Origin: Lophium mytilinum
Taxonomy: Eukaryota
DNA: 64,000 nt
Assembly (NCBI GenBank): GCA_010093605.1
Contig: MU004184.1
Span: 692,801 to 756,800, forward strand
Direction: 5' to 3'
The translations under genes and the position numbers were made by a program. Shown here piece by piece: positions 7,542 to 30,513 of this stretch. Under the pieces are notes generated by a model. That model was given only the letters and a program-made list of their open reading frames with translations, made no database searches and was not told where the DNA came from. Each line of letters opens with the position of its first letter. Within the stretch, counting starts at the first letter, position 1.

Positions 7542-8150
7542 TCAGCGTGGCGAGGGACGTTCGGGCGGAAAGCGGTGGTTGTTGCGAGGGGTGGGGAGAT
7601 AAACAGGTGAGGCCAGGTTAGGTGATTCTCTGTTAGTCACGCTGGGAGTATATGATGCGATTTTGGAGGAGGTATAAAATAAGGTTGAGGGCTGTATAGT
7701 ATTGGACTCTTTATTGGAGGATAGGAGGGGGTTTAGGATCAAAATAACATGGGCGGAGTAACTATGTGGGGGAGTGCTGGGCGGGTTTGGGTTTAACTTG
7801 AATATACTTTGGGATATATGGCTGTGGGGTTCTAGGAGGCAGATGGACGGGTTATTGGGATGGAGATAAGTGGCTTCTGTGGGTAAGGATGGTTGTGGTT
7901 AATCTTTTGTTTCGCTGATTATCACTTTTATAGATGGAATGGAGGTGATTAGCGTTGTTGACGTTTGGTGGCCTTTATTATTCAGGCTTTTGATACTGCC
8001 AACTTCTCTGACAGCAACATATTTGGTTCGAAGATCTGTTTTGCACGACCCAGCCCCGAGCCGTGTAAATGCTGCGGGTTTTGGGTTCACTTGATGCTCG
8101 AGCTCGTCTTCTCTGCTTCTCCGTTACGAGGATGGAGCACATGGTTACGA
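7542..8150 (-). pseudogene. Probable RIP-degraded ORF remnant next to the repeat element
   Basis: ORFs 7899-8090 and 7542-7742 share one frame that is open between them except for a TAA at 7899-7901. The + strand is C-depleted and the translation is rich in N/K/I/S, as expected from G>A changes on the coding strand. Confidence 0.4.
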
Positions 8151-8566
8151 GGTTAGACACACGGATATATCACTTCTCTAGTTCGCCTCTTCATTACTCG
8201 ACATCACTGAAGATAGGTACGTAGTGAACGAAGATTAGCTTCATCAATAAGTAATTTAATCTCTACTTTATATTACTCCTACCATCGCCTATTACTGTAA
8301 TCTCTCGCTCGACGACCTCTTTCGCGTAGAACCTGTCTCCTAGTGTACAACTATCTTCACCACCTTCCCAGCGCCTCAGTTCAATCCATTTCACCGACAA
8401 CTCCTTGTCAATCACACACACAAGTCAGATCTCCGCTTCCTCTTTCAACCCCAAAGAATTTTCTCTTTTCAGATCTTACTCGGGATGTGTCTTTCATACT
8501 CTAATAAATTAAAGAAAAGAAGTCTCGTAACTCGAAATATGAAAGCAAAGCCACTCCCCACCAACT

Positions 8567-11500
8567 ACGCGGCAATCCGCAGCGCTTAATGTTTGCGTAA
8601 TCCGCAGTCTTTTCGCAAACTTTGCCTTGTGCGTAATGCTTAGAAGTCCCAAGGTCCCCGGACTGAAAAGAAGATTTGAATTGCTTCTCGACTGATTACG
8701 CGGCAAAAGGTACAAAAGCAATAGCTAAGTGGCTACGTCCTCCCTACGTGTCAAACTTTGGCGTGTGTCTTAGACGTGCTAGATGGTTCTTTGCCGCCTA
8801 CCAAAGCATGTAATATAGGAAGATTAAAGGGGGTAATGTTATTCAGCCCTTTACTTTAAGGGAGATTATCTAAGCGGCTATATATTCCCTGCGTGCCAAA
8901 TCTTAGCGTGGTCTTCAGATATATTAGACGGTTCTATACCACCTCCCTGCGCACGTAGTATAGTCAGGACAAAGGGACGGAGCGGAAAGGGGAGGGGGGG
9001 TATAGATAATGGTATCTAAGCAGCTATTTCTTCCCTGCATGCCAGATTTTAGCCTATTTTATGGGCGTGTTAGATAGTTCTTTGCCGCCTACTAGCGCAC
9101 GTAATATAGACAGGATAAAGGGGAGGAAGAGGGGTGTAGGGAAAGAGGGGGGAGAGGGGTTTAAATTATTATTTATAAGCGGCTATATCTTCCCTGCGTG
9201 CTAGACTTTAGCGTGGTTCTTAAATATATTAGATAGTTCTTTACCGCCTACGAGCGCACGTAGTATAGTTAGGACGAAGGAACGGAGGGGAAAGGGGAGG
9301 GGGGTATAGATAATAGTATCTAAGCGGCTATTTCTTCCCTGTATGCTAGATTTTAGCCTGTTTTATAGGCGTGTTAAATAGTTCTTTACCGCCTACCAGC
9401 GCATATAATATAGACAGGATAAAGGGGAGAGAGAGAGGTATAGGGAAAGAGGGGGGGGAGGGGTTTAAATTATCATTTATAAGCGGCTATATCTTCCCTG
9501 CATGCTAGACTTTAGCGTAGTTCTTAAATATGTTAGATAGTTCTTTACCGCCTACGAGCGCATATAATATAGACAGGGTAAAAAGAAGGGGTATAGCGCG
9601 GGGGGATAGGGGTGCATAGATACTAATACCTAAGCAGCTACTTCTTCCCTGCGTGCTAGATTCTAGCGTGGTTCGCGGATGTATTAATTAGTTCTCTACC
9701 GCCTACTAGCGCACGCAACATAGATAGGATAAAGGGAAGGGGTAGGGCGCGGGGGGGCAGGAGTCTAGATACTAATAGCTAAGTGGCCACGCGTTCTCTA
9801 GATGCTAAACTTTAACAGTGTTATTAGATATCTAAGACAGTTTTTTACGGCCTACCTGCGCGCGTAATATAGGCATACTAAAGGGGGAAGGTTATTAGGG
9901 GATAAGAATTCAGCCCGTCATTTATAAAATATAAGGTAAGTAGCTATATCTTCTCTAGGCGCCAAACTTTTACATTGTTATTAAACGTCTAATACAGTTC
10001 TTTTCCGTCTCTCTGCGCACGTAATATTGCCAAAAAAAAAAAGGGGGGGAGGAGGGGGGGTAGCGTGGCGTGTAGAATCCAGCCCGTCTCTTATAGAATA
10101 ATAACTAAGTAGCTATTTCTTCCCTAGATGCCAAATTTTAATAGTGTTATTAGATACTTAAGAGATTCCTTTGCCGCATATCTGCGCACGTAATATAGAA
10201 AAGATAAAAGGTATAGTAGAAGAATCTAGCCCGTACTATATAAATAATAGCTAAGTAGCTATATCCTCCCTACGTGCCAAATTTTAATAGTATTATTAGA
10301 TACTTAAGAGATTTCTTTACCGCATATCTACGCACGTAATATAGGAAAGATAAAAGGTATAGTAGAAGAATCTAGCCCGTACTATATAAATAATAGCTAA
10401 GTGGCTATATCCTCTCTACGTGCCAAATTTTAATAGTGTTATTAGATACTTAAGAGATTTCTTTACCGCATATCTGCGCACGTAATATAGGAAAGACAAA
10501 AGGTATAGTAGAAGAATCTAGCTTATACTATATAAATAATAGCTAAGTGGCTATATTCTCCTTACGTGCCAAACTTTAACATTACTATTAGATGCCCAAG
10601 ATAGTTCTTTGCCGCCTATCTGCGCACGTAATATATAAAGAGTTGAAATAAAGAAGGGGGGCTGCGAGGCGCTGGGGCGGCGGGCGCCACTCTAAATAAT
10701 AATAGCTAAGCGGCAGCGTCTTCTCTACGTGCTAAATTCTAGTATAGCGATAAGACGTCTAAGACAGTTCTCTTCAATCTTGCAGGCGTCTATTCGGGAT
10801 TAATTTAAGTGAGGTATATGGGTTCGGGGGTGAGAAGAAGGCCCAAAATAAACAAAGGTCAGTCAAAACACTCTCGATTACGCGCATTTCTCGCAGTTAG
10901 TGTTTGCAAGAGTTGCAGCCTCTCTACGAACTTTCCCCGTATTCCAAGTTGAAAGAAGCGAAGGAGGGGAGGCAGGGAGGGGAGGTCCGAACGCAACGAA
11001 TGTGAGCTAATTTGTGTTCTTTCCAATTACACGGAAATTTCTTGTGCTCAATATCTATACGATTTCCAAGCTTCGTACCAGTTTGCCGTGCAGTTAGGGC
11101 TAGTATGCTTGAGAAAGGGGGGAGAGGGGGAGGCTCCTAAAGGCAGTGCACGCGAGGGATTTTATTCTCCGGCTAATTACACGGAAATTTCCAGTGCTTA
11201 ACATTTACGTATTTCACAGCTTATTCATAAGTTTGCCATGTATCCAGAGCTAATAGGACCGAAAAAGGGGGGAAAGAGGGAGGATTTCCGGAGTGGATAT
11301 ATGTAGGCTAATCCATTCTCTTTCTAACCACGCGGCAATCGTTAGTGATTGATCTTTACAGTCTTTGCAATCTATCTACAGTTTTGTCGCGTATTCGAAG
11401 TTAGTCAGAGTGGGGAACGGGGGGGGGGATAGGGGAGATCGGCTAAGTATTAGGAGATGAGCATGTAGGTAAGCTGTTCGGAGGTCGAATGCGCGGCAAT

Positions 11501-12796
11501 TGCTAAATCTACTTCTTGTGAGTGATATAGCCTTCCTGGGAACTTTGCCGCGTCTTTCGACAAGCGTTTAAGAGTCAGTAAATCACTGTTCAGCCAGCTA
11601 GGGCGAAGGAATTCTCGTCTTTCAAATCGTGACTTAAAAAGCCTCTCTACGTGCGCACCTACATGGAAATTCCCTCCTACGTACTATATATTATATCTGA
11701 ATGCTTTGCGCGCTTGAATTGTATGCTGAAGTTTATTGCAGCACTAAAAGAGGTAATTTAGTCCCTATTATTTAATAAATATAGAACGTAGAAAAAGAAC
11801 CTATATACTCTACTACGCTGTAAATACTCTTTATACTTTCTATTTTCCATCTATAAGCTTTGCCGTGTAATATATATGCTAAAAGTAATTGCAGGTCTAA
11901 TAAAAAAGAGGTCGGGGGCTAAGAGAATTTCCGAGCTTAAGAGTACTAGAATGTAAGAGCTTACTGCGTGCGTAACAACGCGGTAATTGTTCCTTGGGTA
12001 GTTTATCTTCCTTCGGCGTCATTTGCGATCCAGAATGTGCCTGTAGAGGAAATAGGGACGAAGGAACCAGCTGGCTGGGACCGCGGGCCGACCCGCGGAT
12101 ATTCAAAGCCGGCAATTTAGCACCCAATCTACGCGACAATCGTTCTTTGAGCAATTTGCATCCTATTGGTAAAGTTTGGCATCTAGAAGATGCTTGTAGA
12201 GCAATTAACGGTGAAGCGATGACCGGATGGCCGGATGCGGTCGCTGTGCCTGATGAGGATATCGGAAACTGCCTTTTCATTACCAAAGCTACGCGGCAGC
12301 TGCCCTTCAAGTGGTTCCTCTTCGTACGATAAAATTGGCGCTTTTACTTTCGTACAGATGGAGGTTATAGGGTTAAAATGGCGAAGAAGTGTCCAGACTT
12401 GAGAAGCGCGGGCTAGAATGGCGAGCAATCTACGTGCGCAGCCATACGTCAATGATTCTCTACGTGATTTTAAATCATTAGCTAGATTTTGGCACTTAGG
12501 GTCCTAATTGCGCACGTAGAACGAGTCCTCGGGGTAAGAAGTGGCTCCAGGAAGCGCGGACCGAAACCGTTGGCAATCTACGTGCGCTACAAGACGGCAA
12601 TGATTCCTTACGTGCTTAGTTATCTCCACTGAGATTTTGGCACCTACAAACCCAGTAGCGCTCGTAAATAAGTCTTTAGGGCAAGGGGCTGCTCTACCTA
12701 AAGAGCGCAGACTAAGCCCGCTCGCACTTCACATGCGCTACAACGCGGCAATGATTCTTCATATGCTTCGTAACCTCTGGCTGGTTTTTGGCACCT
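8567..12796. repeat. Degenerate tandem array of about 28 units (period about 145-170 bp), each with two inverted half-sites separated by 35 or 44-45 nt
   Basis: 14 clearly related units start at about 8725, 8870, 9016, 9175, 9320, 9479, 9630, 9779, 9936, 10105, 10251, 10397, 10543 and 10706. More divergent units lie at 8567, 10880, 11029, 11179, 11330, 11491, 11661, 11815, 11978, 12131, 12291, about 12441, about 12592 and 12743. Confidence 0.9.
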
Positions 12797-15663: not shown

Positions 15664-16704
15664 GGCAGGCAGAGGGAGAGGGGATAGACTCAGTCAGCAG
15701 TGTGAGTCGATTTTGGATGGAGGTGGATGTTTTGGCCTCGGGCCTCAAGGTCGAAGAAATTGACGCGATTGCCAAGCAACGGAGTTTTGATAGTGAAAAG
15801 AGAGTTGGTTTCGCGCCAACACCGAATCACACCTGCACTCATTACACCACTGTTTGGAGGCCGTCGACACGTTCTCACGCACTCTAGACTCAATGCGATC
15901 TACCGGCCAAATTGAACCGCGGTGATACTGGATGGAAATCCCTTACCCCTGAATGATACGAGGATGCGCTATTCCATGTATCAGAAGACCCAGTAGAGTG
16001 GCTGGATGGGATAGCGGGGGATGAGAGTGAGCTTCGACTTGTCAAAAGAAGTCGCAGGCGGCCACATATACCGCTGTGAAATGGGATGCTCGAATTTGGT
16101 AGAGTGGACGAGGCGAGATATGAGGTTGAAAATGGAGTGACATTGGGGGAGGTGTGATATGCAGAGTCCGGATTCCTTGAGGCTTCAGATCAGGACAGCG
16201 ATACTAACGTATTGCAATCAAGATAATCGAGCCCCCTTGGCCATACCGTTTGAGAAGTGATGTGGATGTGCATTCTTGAGGCTTCAAATCGCACTATGGA
16301 CCTGACGTTATATGAAAGACACGAGAGTCCACTAGGAAGGCACAAAACGAATCAGAAATCAAAAACACGAAGCTTGATTTAAAGGGCTACAACATTTTTG
16401 TATGCACTGGTTCTACACAAAAGTCTATATACGGTATTGCAATGCAAGAGGTGGATGTGACGCCAGAGGATACGTTCAACAACAAACTAACAACACCCAG
16501 TATTACCGTCGCCAAACGCCGCGCCAACGCACGTGGAGCGAGACCACTATACACAGAAGTCCGCTATGATTATGGCTAGACTTAAAGAAAAGAAAAGAAT
16601 GAGGGAAGCGTGGCTCCTACAGAATACCATAATTATCAGTGACGCCTCATTACGGCACGGCTCCATCCACCGAGGAGCTTGTCGTGCCGTCGATTTTCAG
16701 CCGC

Positions 16705-19700
16705 TCACAGCGAAAACCGGCTTGTCGTCGCCTTCTCGTCGCTCTTATATTCGCTGTTGTAAATGCTGCTGCTTCCACTCTGCGGGCCGCTCTCTGGGCC
16801 GCTCCATTCCACGCTCTTGCCCTCTTCGATCATGTCCGCACTCTCCCGCTTCGATAGTAGGTCGTCTGGGAAGGGAAACAAGGTCCGCCGTCTAGGCGGG
16901 TTCTTCTCACTAGCACTCAACCACACCTGCTGCGTGATGTCTTTGCCCAACGCCTCGATGATTGGAGTGACAATTGGAAGGGAAAGGAAAAGAACCGCAT
17001 AGCTGGAGATGCCAACGATGGCGACATTGATGCCATAATTGAAGCCACGCGATGCGAGCAAAACCATGAGCCAAGAGCCCCAGCTCCAAAAGACGAGACC
17101 GTGGAGAAGGTAGATGGTGAAGATGTGAGGGAAGACGAGAAGGAAGGCCTTTCGGCTCAACAGCCACTGCACTGCTGGGGATATCTCCACAATAGCCTGC
17201 ATACCAACTGCGAATAGCAGACCGTTGAGACGAGGCACGTAGTAAGCTGGGTATCCCGCGTTGTCAGTGCGCGCGAGGGGCTCGCCCGAGGGCACATCGG
17301 GGTGGATGTTGTTTTCATAGGTGGCGAAGTTGAAGTCGGTCCAGTTGGGAATTACGTTTGAGGAGAATCCCAAAGCGACGGACGTCCAACATAGAAGAAG
17401 AAGCGGGTAGTAAGCATAAGCGCGGGAGTAGAGCCACGGGCGCCACTTGTAGGTGACGTCGAGATCGGCGAGCATGAGACCAAGCCATAGGTAGCTGCCC
17501 CATGATTGCGCATACCAGTGATTTACGACAACAAAGGCATAGTAGCAGAAGCGCTTCCAGGCGGTCTTCATCTCGTATACGACGACAACGCCGAGGAGGA
17601 CGAGCCAGGATCCTTGAAGCTGCACTGCGATCGTCCAAAGAACGCCCGTGCAGTAGTTGAATGTGATTTGAGGAACAGCATTCGGGATGAGATAGATAAG
17701 CTCGAGGACCTCGCTGATGTAGTGGCCAAACGTAGGAAAACGTGCCACGTATGGCCAGGTGGACCAAGAGATAGATGGCGTGTACTCAAGGAATTTGGTT
17801 GCGCCACAATCGATGACGAAGTACTCGAAGAGCACGACCGTTGACACGGGTATCATGAGACGCGGAGTTCGTCGTACAGCATTCTGAGCAATGTCTTTCA
17901 AGTTTCCACTCTTGAGGTACTTGGCGACCAAGAAACGAGTTGAGGTTGTGAAGAACACACCAAGCCACATCTGGTTGAGGATGAAAGGAGAAACAATTTT
18001 CTGGGCCCAGTACTCGCTCTTGTGATGGAGCGGAGCGCCTGGAATGACAATGGCAGGAACATAGGAGAGACCAAAATGCATGACCGTGACCAGTATCGCA
18101 CAGATAGCGACGAGGCCGGCGAGATAATCAATGCGCTGTCTGGGAGGATGGACAGTCATACGCGGTGCTGGCAGAGCAGATTCAGTCACAGTCGACATAG
18201 GAATCTTGCCCTCGGCACGATCTGCTGCCGATTCGTGGACTTCCAAGGTCTTTTCCGATACCATCCCGGGCGACTTTTGGTATTCCGCAATTCGGTTTTG
18301 ATGAGAGTCTGGAAGTGGGATATGTTCCCTGGTAGTGTTGAAATGGCTGGAAGAAGCGGAGTATGGCGTCGTCGCCCTCGGGGTTGTTGCTCGACTATCC
18401 CATTTCACAGAGGCTGTTTGCGATGACTGTCCGCCGTACATGGACGAGGCGCTGTATATCGAGGGTTGGCGACTTGGACCAATCTGCTCAATTGCCATAT
18501 CGTCTTCCTCTCGTTTAACACCGAAGTCGAAGCTGGACTTCTGGGCTGGAGTCGTACCGCCAGATGCCAAGGTGTCGTTCGAGCTAGCCACTTCGGGTAC
18601 GGCCGGTTCCGCTGACGGTTGGCCATGACCGTGACTAGCTGAGGCCAACTCCTTTCGCCAAGGTGCGCGGCGCAGGAAGGCGTGCAGGAGCAAAAGAGAT
18701 GAGAATGCAATGCAGATGACCGATATCCATAGTGCGGGCATCCTTCTGATGCTTTTGTGGCTAGCTTGCTCCCATTTCTTGGTCGCAGCTTCATCGTGCG
18801 GCGTGGACCCACGAATGGTGATATCATCCATGGAGCAAGCGTCTGTGAGGGGACAGCGAGAAACGAATTCGGTGTGCTGTTCCACGCTCATGGTCGAAGA
18901 GTTGAAGAACATGCGCACCCATGCCACACTGGCTACAGATTCCCTTTTGGGAGGTCCTTCCATGGAATATTTGTTGCCAGTCGACCAATGCTTCAGATAG
19001 AACGGAGCTGGAACAGAGGGCATGCCCTTGTTGTCTTTGTGCAAGACAGTCCTGGTGCAGTTGCCCCCAATGTAGAAATTGATGTACTCCTTCGTCCAGT
19101 CGATGCGGTATTCGGTGTAGTCCCAAGCATCAACGCTTCCGTTAGTGGCGGAGTTGGCCAACGTGGTGTAGTTGTGGTTCGCAGACGCATTGTGGCTCAG
19201 ATCGGTGTAGTTCATCCCCAAGTTTCGAGTAGGGAATTCCCCGCTGACGAAGGTGCCAATCCAGGCTTCGTTGGCTGCGTCCGTATTCATGACGCTTAAT
19301 TCGGTGGATTCGGTGTCGTTGTACTGAAGCATCATGGACATGGCGCTGCCGCCGATTCTCTGTGGTGGCGATTTGATCAGGGAGCGGAAAGAGCCATACT
19401 GAATGTCCTTTCGAACAGTGTGCATCCCGCTGCCCACAACAAGGTGGACATCAGATGACGGTTGGAGGTGGAAGTCCAGAGAGCCCTTTTCATTCAATTG
19501 AAGGTTTTTCGGGTCCGCACCCTGGCGGTAGATGGCATTCCAGTCTTTCTCGTAGTTGTTTGAGTATGACTCCTCTTGGAAGTCGGGTAGTGGCAGACCG
19601 CTGGTCTCGTTGAAGTAGACAATGATGGAATCCGTAAATAGCTCCTTCGTGGAGGCATCGTAATACCCGCAGGAACAGTTGTTGCCGTTGCCGCCAGTGA

Positions 19701-19776
19701 CATCTGCTCGTACCGACGCAAAGGAAAGCAACGCCAGAGAGACAAAGGAAACGAAGGGAGTTGATCGGGGAACCAT
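16705..19776 (-). CDS. Membrane protein: signal peptide + GH16-like (ConA/jelly-roll) domain + TM helix + low-complexity linker + acyltransferase-3-like multi-pass domain
   Basis: Intronless 1023-aa ORF. Hydrophobic N-terminus followed by CSCGY. GH16-type segments RKDIQYGSFRSLIK, YTEYRIDWTKEYINFYIG and PSVPAPFYLKHWSTGN. AT3-type segments RIDYLAGL...HF, GVFFTTS, AVRRTPRL and GVLWTIAVQLQGS. Confidence 0.88.
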   Translation of the reverse strand: MVPRSTPFVSFVSLALLSFASVRADVTGGNGNNCSCGYYDASTKELFTDSIIVYFNETSGLPLPDFQEESYSNNYEKDWNAIYRQGADPKNLQLNEKGSLDFHLQPSSDVHLVVGSGMHTVRKDIQYGSFRSLIKSPPQRIGGSAMSMMLQYNDTESTELSVMNTDAANEAWIGTFVSGEFPTRNLGMNYTDLSHNASANHNYTTLANSATNGSVDAWDYTEYRIDWTKEYINFYIGGNCTRTVLHKDNKGMPSVPAPFYLKHWSTGNKYSMEGPPKRESVASVAWVRMFFNSSTMSVEQHTEFVSRCPLTDACSMDDITIRGSTPHDEAATKKWEQASHKSIRRMPALWISVICIAFSSLLLLHAFLRRAPWRKELASASHGHGQPSAEPAVPEVASSNDTLASGGTTPAQKSSFDFGVKREEDDMAIEQIGPSRQPSIYSASSMYGGQSSQTASVKWDSRATTPRATTPYSASSSHFNTTREHIPLPDSHQNRIAEYQKSPGMVSEKTLEVHESAADRAEGKIPMSTVTESALPAPRMTVHPPRQRIDYLAGLVAICAILVTVMHFGLSYVPAIVIPGAPLHHKSEYWAQKIVSPFILNQMWLGVFFTTSTRFLVAKYLKSGNLKDIAQNAVRRTPRLMIPVSTVVLFEYFVIDCGATKFLEYTPSISWSTWPYVARFPTFGHYISEVLELIYLIPNAVPQITFNYCTGVLWTIAVQLQGSWLVLLGVVVVYEMKTAWKRFCYYAFVVVNHWYAQSWGSYLWLGLMLADLDVTYKWRPWLYSRAYAYYPLLLLCWTSVALGFSSNVIPNWTDFNFATYENNIHPDVPSGEPLARTDNAGYPAYYVPRLNGLLFAVGMQAIVEISPAVQWLLSRKAFLLVFPHIFTIYLLHGLVFWSWGSWLMVLLASRGFNYGINVAIVGISSYAVLFLSLPIVTPIIEALGKDITQQVWLSASEKNPPRRRTLFPFPDDLLSKRESADMIEEGKSVEWSGPESGPQSGSSSIYNSEYKSDEKATTSRFSL

Positions 19777-21417
19777 GGTGCCAAAAGAGTGTGGACAGGG
19801 AGTCGCTGGAGGTGGGTAGAGGTGCTGTCAGAGTGCCTCCCACGGTATGCTGTTCCGGGCCCGGGGTGCTTTTGCATGCGTGAACGGCTATGAACGAGCA
19901 CGTTGGCAGACGTCAAAGGCTGAAATGCTCGGGGCTGAAATGCTCCTGGGCAACGGCTGGAGGCGCAAACCGGAGATTCAACGATGGCCGATCCACATGA
20001 GGACAGCACGCTTCCGGACTTTGGGAGGAGCCGAGCAGTGAGAGGAGAGAGCAAAAAAAGGCCCGCACATAAAGCTCAAACGGGACGGTTGATAGGAAGA
20101 AAGGCGGTGATTCAGGTGATGCCTGCAACTTCAGAAGAGACTTCTGCGAGACGGCCCAATTGCACCACAGAAGCAGCGTTCCGCCAACAGCATGTACAAG
20201 TACCGTCTTGCTGCGTCGTCTCCCTTGCTGGCTTGAATGCATGCACCGGAGAGCACACAAGCTTGGCTGGCCGAATTGGGCGCCGCCTGGGATCCCCCCT
20301 GAGCACGGGCGGCGGGCATTTCATGGCTGGCAAGCGGAAACATGACGGTGGAGACAGAGTGGAGAGGATGCAGAGACGGGTTGGGAGAGGCGCAGAGACA
20401 GCGCAGAGACAGGCACGGATCGGCGTGGTGGTGAGCCAGGGGAGCTTCGGCGTGGTGAGGCGTGAGAGGTGTGGTTGGAGTGCTCCCTGGGCGTGGGAGA
20501 TGCCCTGGCGCACATCCCGTTCCTAGCGCCAGGAATTCCTCGCCAAGGCTTCGCTGCATGCTCTCTGCTGCTCTAGGGATAGTGAGGCGTATAGTGATGC
20601 ACAGTGCCGCCGGGCGAGCCATGCGTTGGGGGAAACTAACCACGTTGCCCCGACTCAACACCATCTGCAACAGCAAACCGTACCACGCAACACCACAGGC
20701 CCCCGCATCCGTCCCCCCCGATGCGGCTGCCCAGGCCTGCTGCCACACCCTGCCACACCCTTCGGCCGGTCTTCGATATCTTAGCACCACCGAAAAGCAT
20801 GCTCCCCCGGCACCGTGACGCATCGTCGTCGCTGTCGTCGTCGTCGTCGCGTTCGACCCATGCCGCAATGCAGAGTCTTTCTAGCAGGTAACTACCGGCG
20901 ATGCATCCGCACGCCATGACAGGATTAGATCGACAGCGATTGCGCTCCAGCTTCACCCAGCATCCACCCAGGGCGGCATGCGTCCCCCCGGGTGCCCCTA
21001 ACCGTCTACGTCAGGTACTCAGCGGCTGATGAGGTACACGGAAATTCGTCGTCGGAAGCGCTGATAGCAGCTGCTGCAGCGCTGATCCTCTGCAGCATGC
21101 CCACCCTTGTCTTATTGTTTTATTTCTCAACACTATCAAAAGTCACCTTTCGCACCGATTCGTCCTTCTCTTTCTCGTTATCGTCCGTCTTTACACCACC
21201 CTGTCACTCGTTTTTGTTCATTTTTGGGTTGGTGATAGAGTGCTGTTCGGTCCTTGACATACCACTACACATGCCGACTCTACTACTATAATATCCACTT
21301 TTCAGTTGCTTCGTCCTTCTAGGGTACCACCGGCCATCATTCTTTCTGGCCAGCCCATTCCATCGTTTATACTTGGTTTCAACCTTGACACTCTCGCTGA
21401 GCAGTTCCACGGTCAAC

Positions 21418-23008
21418 ATGTCGGAACCGAAAGATTTCACGGTCATCGAAATTGCCGAAGATCCTTTTTACTCTCCCCAAGATGCTGCTGCTGAGGCTCC
21501 ATCGACGAAACCAAAGTCGTTTGCCTCCAGTGACACGGTTGAGCGTATCTCCGCATTTATTTCAGATTGGACCCCTTTCTGCCTCGTTGCTTCGTATTAT
21601 GTCTTCTCAACATGCCTCTACATGTACTGCAGCGACGGCCTCATCGCCATTTTCTGGTTCATCTATATGTGTACCAACTTCTACATTGCTGGCGCCACCG
21701 TTCTCGAGGCGTTCATGAGCATCACACCTTGCCGGGAAGCTAGGAAAATCGTCACCCAAGCAGAGCAGAAGGCATGGAACTTTCCTACGCCAGACAGCGA
21801 GCTCCTAGTCCTCGATCTACTCATTGTTGCCTATCTTCCCAATGAGAAGGACATCATCATGGATCGAGCACTCTACGCTTTGCAACAAATCGACTACCCG
21901 CGGGACAAGATTCGAATCAACATTCTTTACAACACCCCGAAACCCATGGAGGCATTGGAGACCCAGTTAAACGACCTCACTCACCGCTTTCCGCATGCCA
22001 GGGTCATCAAAGTCCCGGGCTCTACCTCGAAGGCGGACAACCTCAACTACTTCCTCACGCTCAACACTGGGTCTGACCTCATTGCGATCTACGACTGTGA
22101 CCACTACCCGCATCCCAACGGCCCACGCTGGGCTGTTGAGCGCTTTATGGCCGACGAGGAAATCGATATTGTGCAAGGTCGATGCGTTGTCTTCAATGCA
22201 GCCGAGACGTACTTGACGAGCATGATTGCCGTTGAGTTTGACAAAATTTACGCTGTATCGCATCCAGGCCGTGCGACCATGTGGGGCTTCGGGTTGTTCT
22301 GTGGCTCCAACGGTTATTGGCGAACTTCCCTCCTCCGCGACCTCAAGATGGACGGCGATATGCTGACTGAGGATATTGACTCGGCGCTGCGGGCATTCTC
22401 TAGGGGCGCAAAGACGGTACACGACCTCAACGTTACTTCATACGAACTCGCACCCACCACGTTCCCGGCATTCTGGAAGCAACGGCTTCGATGGGCTCAG
22501 GGTTGGGCGCAAGCGAGTATGAAGCATGTGAAGATGGTGTACAACAAACCCCAGGATCAGATCCACGCGAAGGACAGTCGCACGTTTGTGGCACGATTTG
22601 GGATCTTCTCATTGCTTCTCATCCGAGAGGCGAGCTACTATCTGGTCACTCAGTACACGTGCCTTGTCCTCAGTTTCCTCATCGTCAAGTTCCCGCGGAC
22701 TGGCGGCGAGCTCTTCAAACTAGTCTACTTCCAATACCCAATTTCGCAGTGGCTCTTCATTATCAGGTTCGTACTACAGCTTCCCCGCTCGCAGAGCTTA
22801 TGACTAACGAAAGTGCAGTATTGTATGCCTTGTCGCGACGCTGTGGATCACCAACCAGGTGAAGTCGGAGTTTGTGACGAGGAAAATGATTATCTCGTTT
22901 TCTGCAATGTACCCTGCCTATCTGATCCTTTCGGCGACGATTGGCCTGTACGGGCATGCAAGGCAGATTGTCAGGTATAGCTCATGGAACCCTACTGCGC
23001 GGACGTAA
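21418..23008 (+). CDS. GT2 processive glycosyltransferase (cellulose-synthase/IcaA-like fold); exons 21418-22766, 22819-23008
   Basis: Two N-terminal TM helices, then AYLPNE, SKADNLN, YDCD (DxD), CGSNG, LTED and QRLRW (QxxRW), C-terminal TM helices and a terminal WNPTART. The intron GTTCGT..CTAAC..CAG keeps the frame. Confidence 0.92.
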
Positions 23009-24586
23009 GAGCCCTTGCTCTGACGGCTGCTGTGTCGTCACGTTGTCACAGCGAGCGGGTTCGGCAAGGCTCCTTGCATTGGAAGAAGCTTATCGTCTTC
23101 CTTGACATTTTCCGGCGGTTTCCCGGTACCATGCGACGCAGCAGAGGTGCCGACGGGTCTAGGCAACGAAGGGTTATTCTTGGGTCGGGCGTTTTCTGCG
23201 GGCATGAACTGCACATGGAGCTGCGTGCAGCAGCGCACATTCCTGTCAGGGCTAGAGCAGTCTCATTCTGCACCTATATGTACATACATAATAATTAATT
23301 CGACTGCGACTGGTTTCCTACAACAATATGCTGTGCCCCTGGCCTGACTCGCGATATTCTCGTCTGGTTAATCGGCCAGTGACGTCTCCGCTGCAGCTTT
23401 TCGCTTTCGCTCTCATGCTTCCGACTGTGCCACTGTGAAGCATCCAGCATGCATGCCAGCATCCAGAACCCGAGCGTCCGCGATGCAGGCAGCCGACACT
23501 TCCCGAGTCTTTGCCTCTAACCTTCATCATTGTGCACAATCGCAGTGGCGACTGCATAAGTGGCTGCCTATTTTTGAAGGCGCATAATGTACCAGGTGTG
23601 AGCAAGCCTTCCCTGAGATGTCGCTATACAGCTTCGCCGGAAGTTCCCAGTCTTGGCCCTCCCCCTGCCACACAGATCGGCAGCGCCAGAGAGACATCAA
23701 TCTGATACCCCCATTCCAATCTTCCTCATAAGGCGACGGCCGCCCACGCAGCTACGCGATTAGGATGCATGCCGCTAGTCAACGGCGATCGCAGTCGACT
23801 CCGGCGACGCGCGGACCGTTTTGCAATATCCACTACGGCCATCTCGACTGCGAGTGGAGCTGCCGCGGCTGAGAATTGGCTTTATTGTCTTGGACCCACC
23901 TCCCGACGCAGAGATGCCAGGAACATAGTTTGTAGATGCACAGTCGCTGCGATAAGGTGTGCTGATCGCGATGCCACCCTGGCAAGTCTGCCGCATTAAT
24001 GAGGATTGCTAGTGGCGGTCGGCTTCGCACGGGACTGGCTGCTCAAGGCGCCCAACGCACGGCTGTGGCTGTTCCCGCGCGCCGGTGTCGCTTGGTTTGG
24101 TGGGCAGATCGACAGGGACCGATGTGCTGCACGGCTTCGGTTGGTAGCAAGCCCAGCACGCCACCATGAGCCCTCACCGACGACAGGCGCACTGACACCC
24201 GGGACACCCATCCCATCTTCGCACCCCTCCCCCTCAGCCCTCCGCGACACGCCCCGAAGTGGAGGCACAGCGCGCACCCGTCCACGGTACACCTGTGTCA
24301 CCACGCGCCCCCGAGCCGCGCAATAGGAGCGGCGTCAGAGAACGCAGGCGGCCTGTCGATCTCGGCTCCTCTCCATCCATGGCTCCATCACGTCCGTCGT
24401 CGCCGGCGACCCGTCCGCCGACCCTCGACCATCAAAAGAGCAGTGCATGGGGTGCTGCAAGGGGCAACAACGCTGGCCTCTGAGTGATGCGTCCGTTCCG
24501 CAGTCTCCTTCTTCATCATCATCATTTCTGTAAATAAAGATATTGGCAGCGAGCATTTGCAGCGTACCTAAGAGCAGGCCGTCAAC

Positions 24587-25955
24587 ATGGGCTTTGAATT
24601 CCCCCCCGCCCTAGTGCCAGCACCGCGCCCTCACGTCTTCCGTGAGCAGGACTATCTTATTGGCGTGCGCGGTTTCCTCGTTGTTCAGTCATTCCTTTGG
24701 GTGTTTCTCACGACTTTCGTTCCCGCCACTGTTGCAAACGCCGCCAATTCAGACGGCCCTCTCTACCAGACCATCATCCGCAAGACCTTTTCTGTGCTGT
24801 TCTGGAACGATGCTCTCATCTACTCCGCCTTTATCTTCCTGTCCGCCCGAACAGTGTGTCTGCCTTTCCTCAAGGACACCTCCCGCCAAACCATCGCGAG
24901 CTCCATCTTCCGCCGCGGCTTGCGCATGTGGTTTCCCACCGCCGTCGCCTTCGCCATCGCAACCCTCATCTTCTCGCAGTCAGGGGTCGCCTACATGGAC
25001 GACTTCAAGACGCGCACCGGCAATGTCTCCATTGCAACTCCTCGTCAGATTCCCAGCTTTCTCAACTGGTTCAACTCCATGTTCGAGGTCTTCTGGGTGA
25101 CCAAAAACACCAATCTGCAAGCTGCCAACACGGCCTTCCCCTCGCAGACCCTGTGGATGATCACCACCATCTACGAGCAGAGCTTCACCATCTACATGAC
25201 CATGGTCACCATCCCCTACACGCGTCGTTCGTGGCGTGTCAAGGCATTCGCCGCATTCATCATCACCGCCTGGTGGGTCCAGTCGTGGGCCTGGTACAGC
25301 ATCGCCGGCCTCCTTATGGCTGACGCGGTTGTCAACATGTCTTTCCGGGAGAAGGCCCGTCGCGGCATCAAGGTGACGCGTTCCTTCACCTTCCCAACGT
25401 GGCCAATTTATGGCTTCCTCATCCTTGCGGGGTACGTCATGGAGTATCTATGGGTCGCATGGCGGCCGGACCTGCGAAGTGCCGAGCTCAAGGGCCATAC
25501 CGGTCTGTACAATGCCGGATCATTGAATGCCGGCTTCGATGTCAACGGTCCCCAAGCACGTGACGACAACTTCTTGATCATCATCGGCTTCTTCTTGTGT
25601 GTCGAGCATTTCGAGATCTTGCAGCGAATATTCAGAACGTCGGTGTTCCAGTACTTGGGCAAGAGGTCATTCAGTAAGCTCGCCCCCTTTCTCTACACGT
25701 CGGCATCTTTGCTTTAGACTCTCTAACACACCACCAGGCTTCTTCCTAATACAAAGCATCATAATCTACACCGCAGGCATCAAGCTCTTCGCCGAGATGC
25801 ATTTCGCCCATAACATAGCCTTTGCTGTCTCGACATTCCTTTGTCTAGTCGTATGTGTCCCGCTCGTCGCACTGACCACAGAGGTATTCTATCGTCTCGT
25901 GGACTATCCGTCGACCGTGTTGGCGCATTTGGTGTTTGATTGGATCCGCACATAA
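24587..25955 (+). CDS. Acyltransferase-3-like multi-pass membrane protein; exons 24587-25673, 25738-25955
   Basis: DYLIGVRG, FIFLSAR, IFRRGLR, TLWMITTIYEQSF, QYLGKRSFS/FFLIQ and FYRLVDYPS motifs typical of fungal AT3 proteins. In-phase GTAAGC..CAG intron. Confidence 0.85.
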
Positions 25956-27062
25956 AGTGTGATCTTGAGTGAGCGTGTGCAAAATCATCAGAGAAGTATA
26001 GCGTCTTCAATAACAAAGATGCCTCCACGGAGGAAACAAGCTGGGTTTCAGGAGGAAGGCTTTTCTATATCTCATCGTTTCGTTCTTTTCGTCCAACAAC
26101 AAGCGGACTTTTGTATATTATTCGTGGCGGGATTTAGCTTAATGCAGCGTAATCGTCTCAACATCTTCTCATGACTTGTTTGAACTTCGCAGTCTGTGCA
26201 GTTTCAAAATGATATCACAGCTCCAACACACGCTCAATTTAGAGATATTTCTCGTAATAAATGCTTGGCGCACGTGACGGATGTTATTCTTTCCTCTGCT
26301 TGTCTATAAAAGTAGAGCTTCCCCTTCAAACGTCTGCACCTCAAAGCAATGAGTCTGAGATGGGATCCCATTAACAACACCGAAGGTGGCACATCATGGG
26401 AGTTGGACTTGCCCTGGACTCGAGGGTGGAAGTATCAAAATAAATTACGATCAGAACCATGGTCGGGGAAGAGAAAGTGGTGTGGAGTCCCATGAGCGCT
26501 CACTCAATGACCATATGTAATGGTGTTCACAGCCACGCTGGTCAATTAGTTCTCATTGTTTCTTGGTTCTGGCGCCAGCCTTCTGCTCTCCAGTTCAATC
26601 ACTTTCGTCAACACCCCGTAGAGGTTCTCATCATCACACCTGTACACATTGACACGCACACCTATCACCCTCCTATTCCGCCTCTCACACACACCATCGG
26701 ACATAGGCAGCAATGTTGTTGAACACAACCACGTTCGACACCCGCACCCAACTCCGCCACCACTCCCACACCATCGTTCAAAATCCCCGAGGTAGATGAT
26801 AGTACCACATCGTCACTGCCGTCCGACGGGTTCGATTCCTCGAAATCCCTCGCCTTGAGGAGGAAGTTGCTCCAGCCGTCGTCGAAGTTTTATACCCCCT
26901 TCCCAGGAACACAACGTGACCATCAGCTGACTCCTTCCCGTTACTGAACTTCCATACTCGCCGGGTAGGAGTGATAATCCCTCAACCTCGCTTAACCCAC
27001 GTGACGCGAGGGTTTCATGACGGGGAGGGAGGAGTACTTCGTCCAAGAGGGCGTTTCCCCAT

Positions 27063-28653: not shown

Positions 28654-30513
28654 TTACTCCACCATCTTCAACTCCTCAGTTCTTGCAGGAGCAAAAGTGT
28701 CTCGCCATTCATTCCACATTCTCTCCAGCTCTTCCACGTACTGTGCATGCAAACTCTCAACATATTCCCTATCCGGCTGTTCCTGCTGCATAACCTTGAT
28801 AGGATGCCCTACCACCACGTTGAGCGGGCGACGGTACGGCATCATGCCAACGTCATAATTGAAAATTCCTCTCGCATGAAACAGCGGGACGGTGAAGCCC
28901 ATGATCTTCTTGACGAGAAGCTGGAACTTGTGGACCCAGGGATGGGTCTTTGCGTCGACCTGGTCATAAATGTCGTTCTCGCCGAATCCCAAAACGGGCA
29001 CGAGATCCGCGCCCGTGCGGATGGCAATCTTGACGAAGCCCTTGCGGCGCTTCAGAACAAGACGGAAGGTGCCTGGCCGTGCGTCCAGCGACTCTCGGGC
29101 GCCGCCGACAACGATCGTGATTGCGCGGCCCATGCCTTCTCCGTTCGGACCGCCGTGGGTGAGAAGCGCTTCACAGGACTCGCGAGAGACGGAGGCCAAG
29201 CCCATGCGCAAGGCATACTCGCGGTAGAGGGGAATGCGGAAGTTGGCGTCGAGGGTGAGTAGGGTGTTTGTGATGCCTGGGAAGAGCTGGGAGAAGCCGA
29301 GAGCTTCGGTAGCAAAGGCCGCCCAGGCGCCATGTGAGATGATGCCGTGCGGATGGTACCCGAAAATGTACTTCCGTGTCGGTGGTAGTTCGGCAGAGCG
29401 GTGCAGGCGCGCCGGGTAGTAGGAGGCGAAGAGCGACCAAATGGATGAGCGACGCCAGCGCTCACTACGGTGAGAAAGCTTCCCGTCCGTGCCAGCGTGC
29501 GAGAAGAGGACATAAAGAGAGTAGGGAAGTACGATGGGCCAGAGGAGTGGAACGCCACAGGCGAGGAAGAAGATTGCTAGGAGGCCTGCAACGCTCAAGG
29601 TGTGCATCAGGACAACTAGGGTTTGAAGCCGTCTTTGTAGTGGCACGTTGAGGGGTGCGTAGCGAATCCTGTAAGACGTTAGGTCGGTGCGACAATGTCT
29701 TATCGCAGAATTTTCAAAGATTGAGATTTATTGCAAGCCATGAGCTGCATTGCTTGCATGAAGGGTGATCTGGTGTTTGGGGGCTCTGAGTCGAAGCGCT
29801 TGCAGCTTAAGCTCCTAGATGTCGATTCTAAAGGATGGAGTGGCATACTTGCTTGCTGTCCACCCTGCTCCGGCCTTCCTTCCATGCACCAGCTCGCCCT
29901 TCTTGGCTGGTTTCTCCTTCTTGGCTACTCGAAGCTGGCGATTGTAATCTTCAGAGGGCTCAATGCTTGCCAGAAGCCCGCCGTTTCCGTTCTTGTGTTC
30001 GTGGTATATGTAGTGTTGCGATCGTGAGGATGGCCTCGAAGACGTCGAGACGGAACCATTGGATTTCAAGGACGAGTGTCTCTTGTGGCCCTTTCGTGTT
30101 GGACTCTTGGGGCTGTCATCCTGTCCAGATCCTTCATATTGCTCCTTCTCAGGCTCGATCGGAGCAGGTGTTGGTTTCGCACGCTTCGTTGATTGAGAGG
30201 CTCCATTCGGTCGTTCAGCCAAGCCGTTTGTACTGTCCAAGCCATTGAGATGAGTTGTTGGGGCATTGAGAGGGAGGGGAGGTGCTTCGAGAGCCTCCGC
30301 GAAGCTCTTCTCATGGTCCCCATTTTCGTGTCGGGGCCCAGACGATCCATTGAGCGACGTGGTGGCGGCTTCAGGTGCTCCGGAATTCTCCTTTGCTGGT
30401 CGATGATTTATTTGGGAGTCGGCAGGGGCTTCAGTAGCTTCAGCGTAGCTCTTGGGAGCGAGATGTTGAGCCTCTCGTTCTTTGGGCGCGGCGGGCTCCG
30501 GATTGAGCGACAT
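28654..30513 (-). CDS. DGA1: Diacylglycerol O-acyltransferase 2 (DGAT2); exons 30513-29849, 29668-28654
   Basis: IRYAPLNVPLQRRLQT, YYP, FGYHPHG, VVGGARESL and RKGFVKIA...GADLVPVLGFGEND are DGAT2 hallmarks. Confidence 0.95.

Follow-up and report, generated by a model that had tools for sequence, protein, structure and literature searches.

The locus described here raises a simple question: what do three neighbouring genes of the fungus Lophium mytilinum, coding for a fusion of a GH16-like with an AT3-like domain, a GT2 glycosyltransferase and a second, stand-alone AT3-like protein, make together? They occupy positions 16,705 to 25,955 of a 64,000-nucleotide stretch (assembly GCA_010093605.1, contig MU004184.1, positions 692,801 to 756,800, forward strand), referred to as the window. 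Our answer is that the trio is a real, conserved and expressed three-gene module, best read as a variant of the synthase-dependent acylated-glycan systems, whose product is probably an undescribed, acylated surface polymer. The initial annotation, made from the sequence alone, had placed the fusion divergent from a motif-complete GT2 followed by the stand-alone AT3, and this arrangement was confirmed by open reading frames (ORFs), Pfam matches, motifs and splice joints. The features are listed below together with the contigs of transcript run X1 that bear on them.

16705..19776, minus strand: coding sequence of the GH16-like/AT3-like fusion, 1023 aa, intron-less, within one unbroken X1 contig (16383-20487)
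16897..18141, minus strand: AT3-like (TmAT-fold) domain of the fusion, about residues 546-960, assigned by residue census, HGSNAT fold match and paralogue alignment
18871..19695, minus strand: GH16-fold domain of the fusion, about residues 28-302, assigned by Pfam PF00722, Foldseek and VIA, predicted to be extracytoplasmic
19294..19308, minus strand: degenerate GH16 catalytic strand S157-T-E-L-S161, standing where E-x-D-x-E is expected
20488..20658, no strand: 171-bp gap between the X1 contigs of the two divergent genes
21418..22766, plus strand: GT2 exon 1, assigned by ORF and motifs (YLPNE, KADN, DCDH, LFCGS, TED, QRLRW)
22767..22818, plus strand: GT2 intron, 52 nt, GT..AG, joint found in 4/4 runs, frame clean
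22819..23008, plus strand: GT2 exon 2, completing a protein of 512 aa
24587..25673, plus strand: stand-alone AT3-like exon 1, with Arg28 and RxxR retained and V39 in place of the His of the first transmembrane helix (TM1)
25674..25737, plus strand: stand-alone AT3-like intron, 64 nt, GT..AG, joint found in 4/4 runs, frame clean
25738..25955, plus strand: stand-alone AT3-like exon 2, completing a membrane protein of 434 aa

Transcript evidence was taken from the contigs of four runs from four studies, out of 11 runs listed. None of the 11 is recorded as RNA, and contig depth is unfit for ranking genes or showing co-regulation; the four runs are nevertheless cDNA-like, since GT..AG splice joints are seen in them. 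Contigs covered all three genes in each of the four runs, so that the co-expression check suggested with the initial annotation has an answer as to presence, co-regulation not being readable from such data. Specifically, run X1 was identical to the window letter for letter and gave three separate contigs (16383-20487, 20659-23320 and 24193-26077). We conclude that all three are genuine, expressed genes and that their splicing is the predicted one. The coding sequences lie 1641 and 1578 bp apart, in agreement with the spacers of about 1.6 kb first annotated, but as non-transcribed space this figure does not hold, X1 leaving 171 and 872 bp uncovered. Because X1 contigs cover most of both, the coding spacers are largely untranslated region. 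The 171-bp gap is a probable shared bidirectional promoter, although the contig ends need not be true transcript starts; in 18 divergent spacers no 8-mer was enriched over background (7 versus 6-9).

Among the matches listed, the closest named relatives of all three proteins belong to Mytilinidion resinicola (92-96% identity), and the GT2 has the same length as its closest named homologue. The fusion shows a hydrophobic N-terminus, the GH16-fold domain, a single membrane helix (346-370), a disordered linker of low confidence and the multi-helix AT3-like membrane domain, and 414 matches are relatives of similar length. For residue censuses we used the best 120 of 1881 (GT2), 414 (fusion) and 324 (stand-alone) matches, plus the query, giving 121 sequences in each case.

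The GT2 appeared fully equipped. Residues D226, D228, E318, D319, Q355, R358 and W359 are kept in 121/121 sequences and T317 in 120/121, and by its DxD, TED and QxxRW motifs the protein is an intact synthase of the processive type. Its matches among PDB sequences are BcsA chains only, with LFCGS aligning with FFCGS. GT2 exon 1 scored 89.7 bits against the CelA model (TIGR03030, cut-off 699) and 69.1 bits against the PgaC/IcaA model (TIGR03937, cut-off 422), and we take UDP-glucose as the better guess for the sugar, not as a result. A crude hydropathy scan gave hydrophobic segments at both ends of the protein, with two helices above threshold.

The GH16 part of the fusion gave a different picture. 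Pfam GH16 (PF00722) matched residues 106-274 (E 1.3e-7), and the model of the domain retrieved lichenases with Foldseek (E 1e-9) and 3i4i with VIA (Z 19.8, root-mean-square deviation (rmsd) 2.6, 200 aligned), many GH16 subfamilies being tied. The modelled domain clearly has the GH16 beta-jelly-roll fold. In addition, nine N-glycosylation sequons fall within residues 1-345 of the fusion. L164, the nearest GH16 paralogue within this genome, keeps the active motif, N-D-S-Q-E-I-D-M-E, after the same upstream block; by this alignment, therefore, the nucleophile position is S157 and the acid/base position S161, on the model strand 157-163. Glu was found at neither position (0/121 each), and no ExDxE or ExDxxE motif was found in any of 132/132 fusion homologues, distant fusions included. 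Since the catalytic motif is lost family-wide, the domain is probably a glycan-binding module, not a hydrolase, as judged from sequence. The synthase, hydrolase and acyltransferase set of the initial annotation is accordingly upheld for the synthase but not for the hydrolase, the catalytic glutamates of which are gone, while its acyltransferase part is likely but less certain.

The AT3 label itself required closer scrutiny. Neither AT3-like protein of the window matched PF01757, no NCBIfam model matched either of them, and PF07779 (Cas1p/CASD1 O-acetyltransferases) matched neither the window proteins nor 25 homologues. PF01757 was reached through homologues, with 6/25 members matching at E up to 1 (best 5e-8) and precomputed matches as well. 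For the stand-alone protein we used the structure model of its 92%-identical homologue P0244 (predicted local distance difference test score 92), for which VIA-align gave HGSNAT 8jkv (Z 15.2, rmsd 4.7, 297 aligned) and GWT1 8xik (Z 10.1, rmsd 5.0, 280 aligned), the next row having Z 6.4; Foldseek gave no match for this model at E up to 0.001. The AT3-like domain of the fusion matched HGSNAT 8tu9 (Z 13.1, rmsd 4.9, 322 aligned). On these models, both domains have the ten-helix TmAT fold. They are also paralogues of each other (E 3.5e-35 over 413 columns), and the profile of the stand-alone family found fusions among its next relatives. The AT3 assignment of the initial annotation is thus supported through homologue matches and fold, but not by a direct PF01757 match or by a complete R-X10-H motif.

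The R/K-X10-H motif of TM1 is described as absolutely conserved in bacterial AT3s (PMC9833829); in the OafA work, R14A or H25A each abolished activity, and the His is given as invariant in 31 characterised bacterial AT3s (PMC7448272). Three canonical fungal AT3 paralogues of the same genome (L167-L169) retain R-X10-H. In the fusion family, His567 is present in 121/121 sequences and the Arg in 0/121, being replaced by Val, Thr or Leu; in the window fusion the TM1 Asp and Arg positions are A553 and V556, respectively. The stand-alone family has Arg28 in 121/121 and the His in 0/121. Other residues are shared by the two families. The RxxR at the start of TM3 is kept in both (R636 and R639, each 121/121, in the fusion; R110, 121/121, and R113, 112/121, in the stand-alone protein), as is an aligned E-x3-H (E821, 120/121, and H825, 121/121; E300, 121/121, and H304, 120/121), in a loop placed outside by helix count. 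Acylation is therefore likely, yet less certain than the AT3 labels imply, because each domain is without half of the essential motif.

A distant set of 149 sequences, counted if longer than 330 residues and with both TM1 positions aligned, added depth to this census. Among distant fusions, 10/12 keep R-X10-H and 2/12 have neither residue; the latter two (P0635, P0639) are possibly decaying copies. The His is absent in 36/36 distant stand-alone types, and one chytrid stand-alone AT3 keeps both residues. Both AT3-like types occur in smut fungi (Tilletia, Violaceomyces), where the fusions keep the full motif. In a quick tree without bootstrap, each type formed one clade in which smut-like as well as ascomycete branches occur, with the bacterial neighbours placed elsewhere. 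From this tree and the intact smut fusions, the His-less partner appears to be old, and the loss of the Arg in the fusion later, in filamentous ascomycetes. The idea that the two types had divided a single ancestral motif strictly reciprocally was revised, since smut fusions keep both residues.

Does the trio stay together in other fungi? A metagenome contig scan with the GT2 alignment confirmed 127 stretches, of which the best 80 were kept. All 19 loci with full flanks (at least 8 kb upstream and at least 5.5 kb downstream; 14 distinct loci at 95% nucleotide identity) carry the GH16 domain, the fused AT3 and the stand-alone gene. With at least 3 kb of flank on one side, 43/44 loci carry at least one partner, L082 being the exception; overall a partner was seen in 49/80, and 30 others have less than 3 kb of flank. 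The genes come in three orders. Besides the window's own, the stand-alone gene can sit in the middle (L027, L041, L044, L064, L071), or it can lie upstream and the fusion downstream (L053, L054). In a synteny control over 22 loci, ORFs not belonging to the trio were each shared with at most two other loci, and among ORFs of at least 70 aa no fourth conserved gene was found, a size limit at which very small genes could be missed. Accessions of all three genes are consecutive in the 3/3 genomes checked (M. resinicola, Lepidopterella palustris, Zopfia rhizophila), and the trio locus tags of Sarea resinae are consecutive (002080/81/82). Two of the three genes lie side by side in Lophium, Coniothyrium, Neocucurbitaria, Coniosporium, Alternaria atra, Diplodia, Macrophomina, Claussenomyces, Monilinia and two Paecilomyces species. 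Botrytis, Monilinia and relatives (Sclerotiniaceae) have two GT2 paralogues (P0110 and P0115 clusters). From sequence comparison the trio is best read as a Dikarya-wide module. Unlinked orthologues had been named at the outset as the finding that would speak against a single unit; orthologues are instead linked in several fungal classes, and the proposal of one unit that makes and acylates an uncharacterised glycan withstands this check and that of joint presence in the same runs, while acylation is likely but less certain.

The surroundings of the trio differ on its two sides. The non-genic or decayed DNA annotated around it was found on the left, where a dinucleotide signature like that of repeat-induced point mutation lies at 8-12 kb together with diverged repeat copies elsewhere in the genome, window positions 8000-12000 being a probable transposon relic. 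This description fits the right side less well: an X1 contig of 524 bases starts at 26555, in a stretch where no long ORF was found, and a DAGAT gene follows at 28654-29727. DAGAT also occurs near the trio in two Pleosporales-like loci (L004, L006), which looks like ordinary local synteny.

Outside fungi, the nearest relatives of the GT2 form an uncharacterised bacterial clade with 34-44% identity and the same motifs (Leptolyngbyales, Actinomycetota, Armatimonadota). A single AT3 gene, mostly with an intact TM1 motif, lies within 600 bp of the GT2 in 33/79 bacterial loci. Several AT3s of these bacterial units (L095, L097, L112, L116, L129, L090, L136 and others) have Tyr or Gln for the TM1 His, and at L085:214-4242 a 1343-aa ORF of Patulibacter joins a GT2 of the clade with a BcsB-like domain. 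None of the 80 bacterial loci showed a GH16-AT3 fusion or an ORF matching the fungal AT3 profiles; in addition, the fungal GT2s do not fall within the sampled bacterial ones (FastTree, one long outgroup). Bacterial transfer of the whole GT2 and AT3 pair is unsupported by the profile result, the separate AT3 branches and the GT2 tree. No study of this bacterial GT2 clade turned up in our literature work, which included no search aimed at it.

Among known systems, the closest likeness is to IcaA and IcaC of staphylococcal icaADBC, where a processive GT2 gene lies beside a gene for an AT3-family membrane protein and IcaC is thought to acylate the chain leaving the IcaA synthase (both as presented in PMC9833829 and PMC9558356). 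The initial annotation cited icaADBC as an example with a glycoside hydrolase, which is to be corrected, since the system as described in PMC9558356 has a deacetylase, not a hydrolase. Unlike icaADBC, the fungal trio is eukaryotic, has two AT3-like paralogues each without part of R-X10-H, carries a fused dead GH16 domain, and in the 22 loci (ORFs of at least 70 aa) comes with no deacetylase or small synthase partner gene. The trio would work like icaAC, yet it is not a member of icaADBC.

Galactosaminogalactan of Aspergillus is an exopolysaccharide with a clustered fungal pathway, in which the membrane synthase is a GT4 and is accompanied by active hydrolases, an epimerase and a deacetylase. 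None of these belongs to the trio, and the Pfam scan of the window's 27 long ORFs returned no GT4, epimerase or deacetylase of this type. With respect to domain architecture, the fusion resembles OafA, OafB and OatA, in which an additional membrane helix connects AT3 with an extracytoplasmic domain that faces the carbohydrate (PMC7448272, PMC9833829). The extra domain of the fusion differs from theirs in being N-terminal, of GH16 fold and apparently non-catalytic, whereas the SGNH domain, as described for these proteins, is C-terminal and catalytic. The ten-helix acyl-CoA transfer fold is shared with HGSNAT and GWT1 of the TmAT superfamily (PMC12423673), from which the trio proteins differ in sequence (8-10% identity) and acceptors, those two having no linked synthase.

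A further comparison is with TFT1/CelA of Aspergillus, also a fungal GT2. TFT1 is processive and makes mixed-linkage glucan, a beta-glucan (bioRxiv 10.64898/2026.09.17.752320, PMC4344333); according to the preprint text, it works alone in yeast, having been expressed in Komagataella phaffii, is numbered to at least residue 558, against 512 residues for the window GT2, and the fungal mixed-linkage glucan synthases TFT1/CelA have 70-96% identity to AfTFT1 (bioRxiv 10.64898/2026.09.17.752320). The length of the window GT2 and the occurrence of another GT2 in the genome (L002, 24% identical) speak against its being an AfTFT1-type synthase, a point judged from these two features and not from alignment. 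The Lophium genome thus encodes two processive GT2s; L002 (G000:C5:472160-472981 and downstream) is 23-24% identical to the window GT2 and deviates from the usual motifs at several points near the DxD region; it looks like the CelA/TFT1 type by our own reading, not by direct comparison. A targeted literature search returned no paper describing the trio, most subscription journals and supplements, including the tables of the TFT1 preprint, being outside its coverage.

How, then, could the three proteins work together? We propose, and give this an even chance of being right, that they form one membrane module making an O-acylated surface or secreted polysaccharide, in which the fusion would be the catalyst and the His-less paralogue its partner. 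The polymer would probably be of the beta-glucan type. In this mechanism the GT2 would polymerise a UDP-sugar, most likely UDP-glucose, and the chain would be passed across the membrane. On the outer face, held by its own membrane helix, the disabled GH16 domain would bind the emerging beta-glucan and offer it to the fused AT3 domain, much as the SGNH domain serves the AT3 in OafB and OatA. The fused AT3, with His567, RxxR and the outer-loop E-x3-H, would then use His567 to acylate the chain, with cytosolic acyl-CoA as donor. The His-less paralogue may be a non-catalytic or half-active partner, that is, a scaffold, a synthase co-subunit or an acyl-CoA binder, and the fusion of filamentous ascomycetes may lean on it, because the fusion has lost the CoA-contacting TM1 Asp and Arg and the partner keeps the Arg. 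The topology of the fusion fits this scheme, with a signal, an outer domain, a helix, a cytosolic linker and an AT3 with its N-terminus inside; the orientation of the AT3 was referred to the OafB topology described in PMC9833829. An independent hint comes from the AT3 genes found beside the GT2 in 33/79 bacterial loci.

Several observations weigh against this proposal. In this genome neither AT3-like protein has R-X10-H, the standard for an active enzyme set by OafA. The assignment of glucose is weak, both synthase models scoring far under their cut-offs, and bacterial GT2 neighbours include a UDP-sugar dehydrogenase (L089) and a UDP-GlcNAc 2-epimerase (L100). The acidic residues E/D154, E156 and E159 of the GH16 strand are fairly conserved, so that residual GH16 activity in another register is possible. 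As for linkage, L082, which has the most distant GT2 (36-42% identity) on a 64-kb contig, shows no partner in the 3.4 kb before it or the 9.7 kb after it; the trio locus tags of Lecanora helva are far apart; and in Sclerotiniaceae the tags of a second GT2 paralogue do not adjoin the listed stand-alone gene, just one of the two paralogues doing so in Monilinia laxa. Finally, the 33 bacterial AT3-adjacent cases come mostly from one cyanobacterial clade and two actinobacteria, and the AT3s of the bacterial loci did not give rise to those of the fungi.

The incomplete TM1 motifs leave room for two other accounts of the AT3-like proteins. According to the first, which we hold to be unlikely, both are active enzymes with non-standard chemistry, adding two acyl groups or acylating two positions, as GumF and GumG do on xanthan. 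This account stays alive because GWT1, one of the fold matches, is described as a TmAT enzyme that is active although it has neither the catalytic His nor the TM1 Asp (PMC12423673), and both paralogues keep RxxR and the aligned outer-loop E-x3-H. The His is, however, invariant in the 31 bacterial AT3s and in the three canonical AT3s of this genome and is kept by smut fusions, and that all of the stand-alone clade has lost it is more suggestive of an altered role. According to the second, which we find similarly doubtful, the AT3-like proteins of these ascomycetes no longer acylate and act as scaffold or export subunits for an unacylated polymer. It draws on the fact that each window protein is without a residue essential in OafA, on the two distant fusions in which both TM1 residues are gone, and on IcaC, which was first proposed as a transporter of poly-N-acetylglucosamine (PNAG) and whose role is still called open in PMC9558356. 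Set against it are the near-invariance of His567, of both RxxR motifs and of the outer-loop residues in 121 sequences, and the full motif of smut fusions.

A bolder reading, to which we assign a comparably low probability, would make the trio the machinery for linear O-acylated beta-glucans such as pustulan, through the GT2 and not the Kre pathway, with the AT3 paralogues as a split enzyme. In filamentous ascomycetes the fusion would then give the catalytic His and the glucan clamp, and the partner the CoA-binding Arg. To our knowledge, no synthase is known for pustulan and similar acylated glucans. Pustulan is described as a linear beta-1,6-glucan of lichen fungi, partly acetylated (PMC7389562, PMC7164778).

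The remaining alternatives concern the product. That it is an amino-sugar polymer such as PNAG, and the trio a fungal counterpart of icaAC, is very unlikely: the homologues bear the database label 'N-acetylglucosaminyltransferase-like', the PgaC/IcaA model scores 69 bits and the GT2 plus AT3 pairing is that of IcaA and IcaC, but the CelA model scores higher, the PDB matches are all BcsA, the trio is accompanied by neither a deacetylase nor any other fourth gene, and the GH16 folds among the matches listed bind glucans and galactans. Scarcely probable, too, is a GT2 that makes a short lipid- or protein-linked glycan for acylation instead of a long wall or matrix polymer, for which its small size (512 aa), the two strong helices in the simple hydropathy scan and the acylation of a glycolipid by GWT1 (as described in PMC12423673) may speak, since QxxRW, TED and FxGS are invariant as in processive synthases and an outer-face glucan-binding fold suits a longer chain.

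Clustered fungal polysaccharide pathways are few. What PMC9558356 offers on the acceptors of eukaryotic AT3 proteins is little, and the sections of PMC12423673 that we drew upon list fungal AT3 proteins solely in natural-product clusters and in glycosylphosphatidylinositol or capsule pathways. The occurrence of the trio in lichens, moulds and plant-associated ascomycetes, and of both AT3-like types also in smuts, points to an unrecognised, widespread surface polymer. If the proposed module is real in its function, it would offer candidates for the genes behind O-acylated fungal glucans known from chemistry alone, as well as a natural case of a disabled GH16 domain used as an acceptor-binding module. 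In addition, the trio offers a test case for whether TmAT enzymes can work as pairs of a catalytic and a non-catalytic member.

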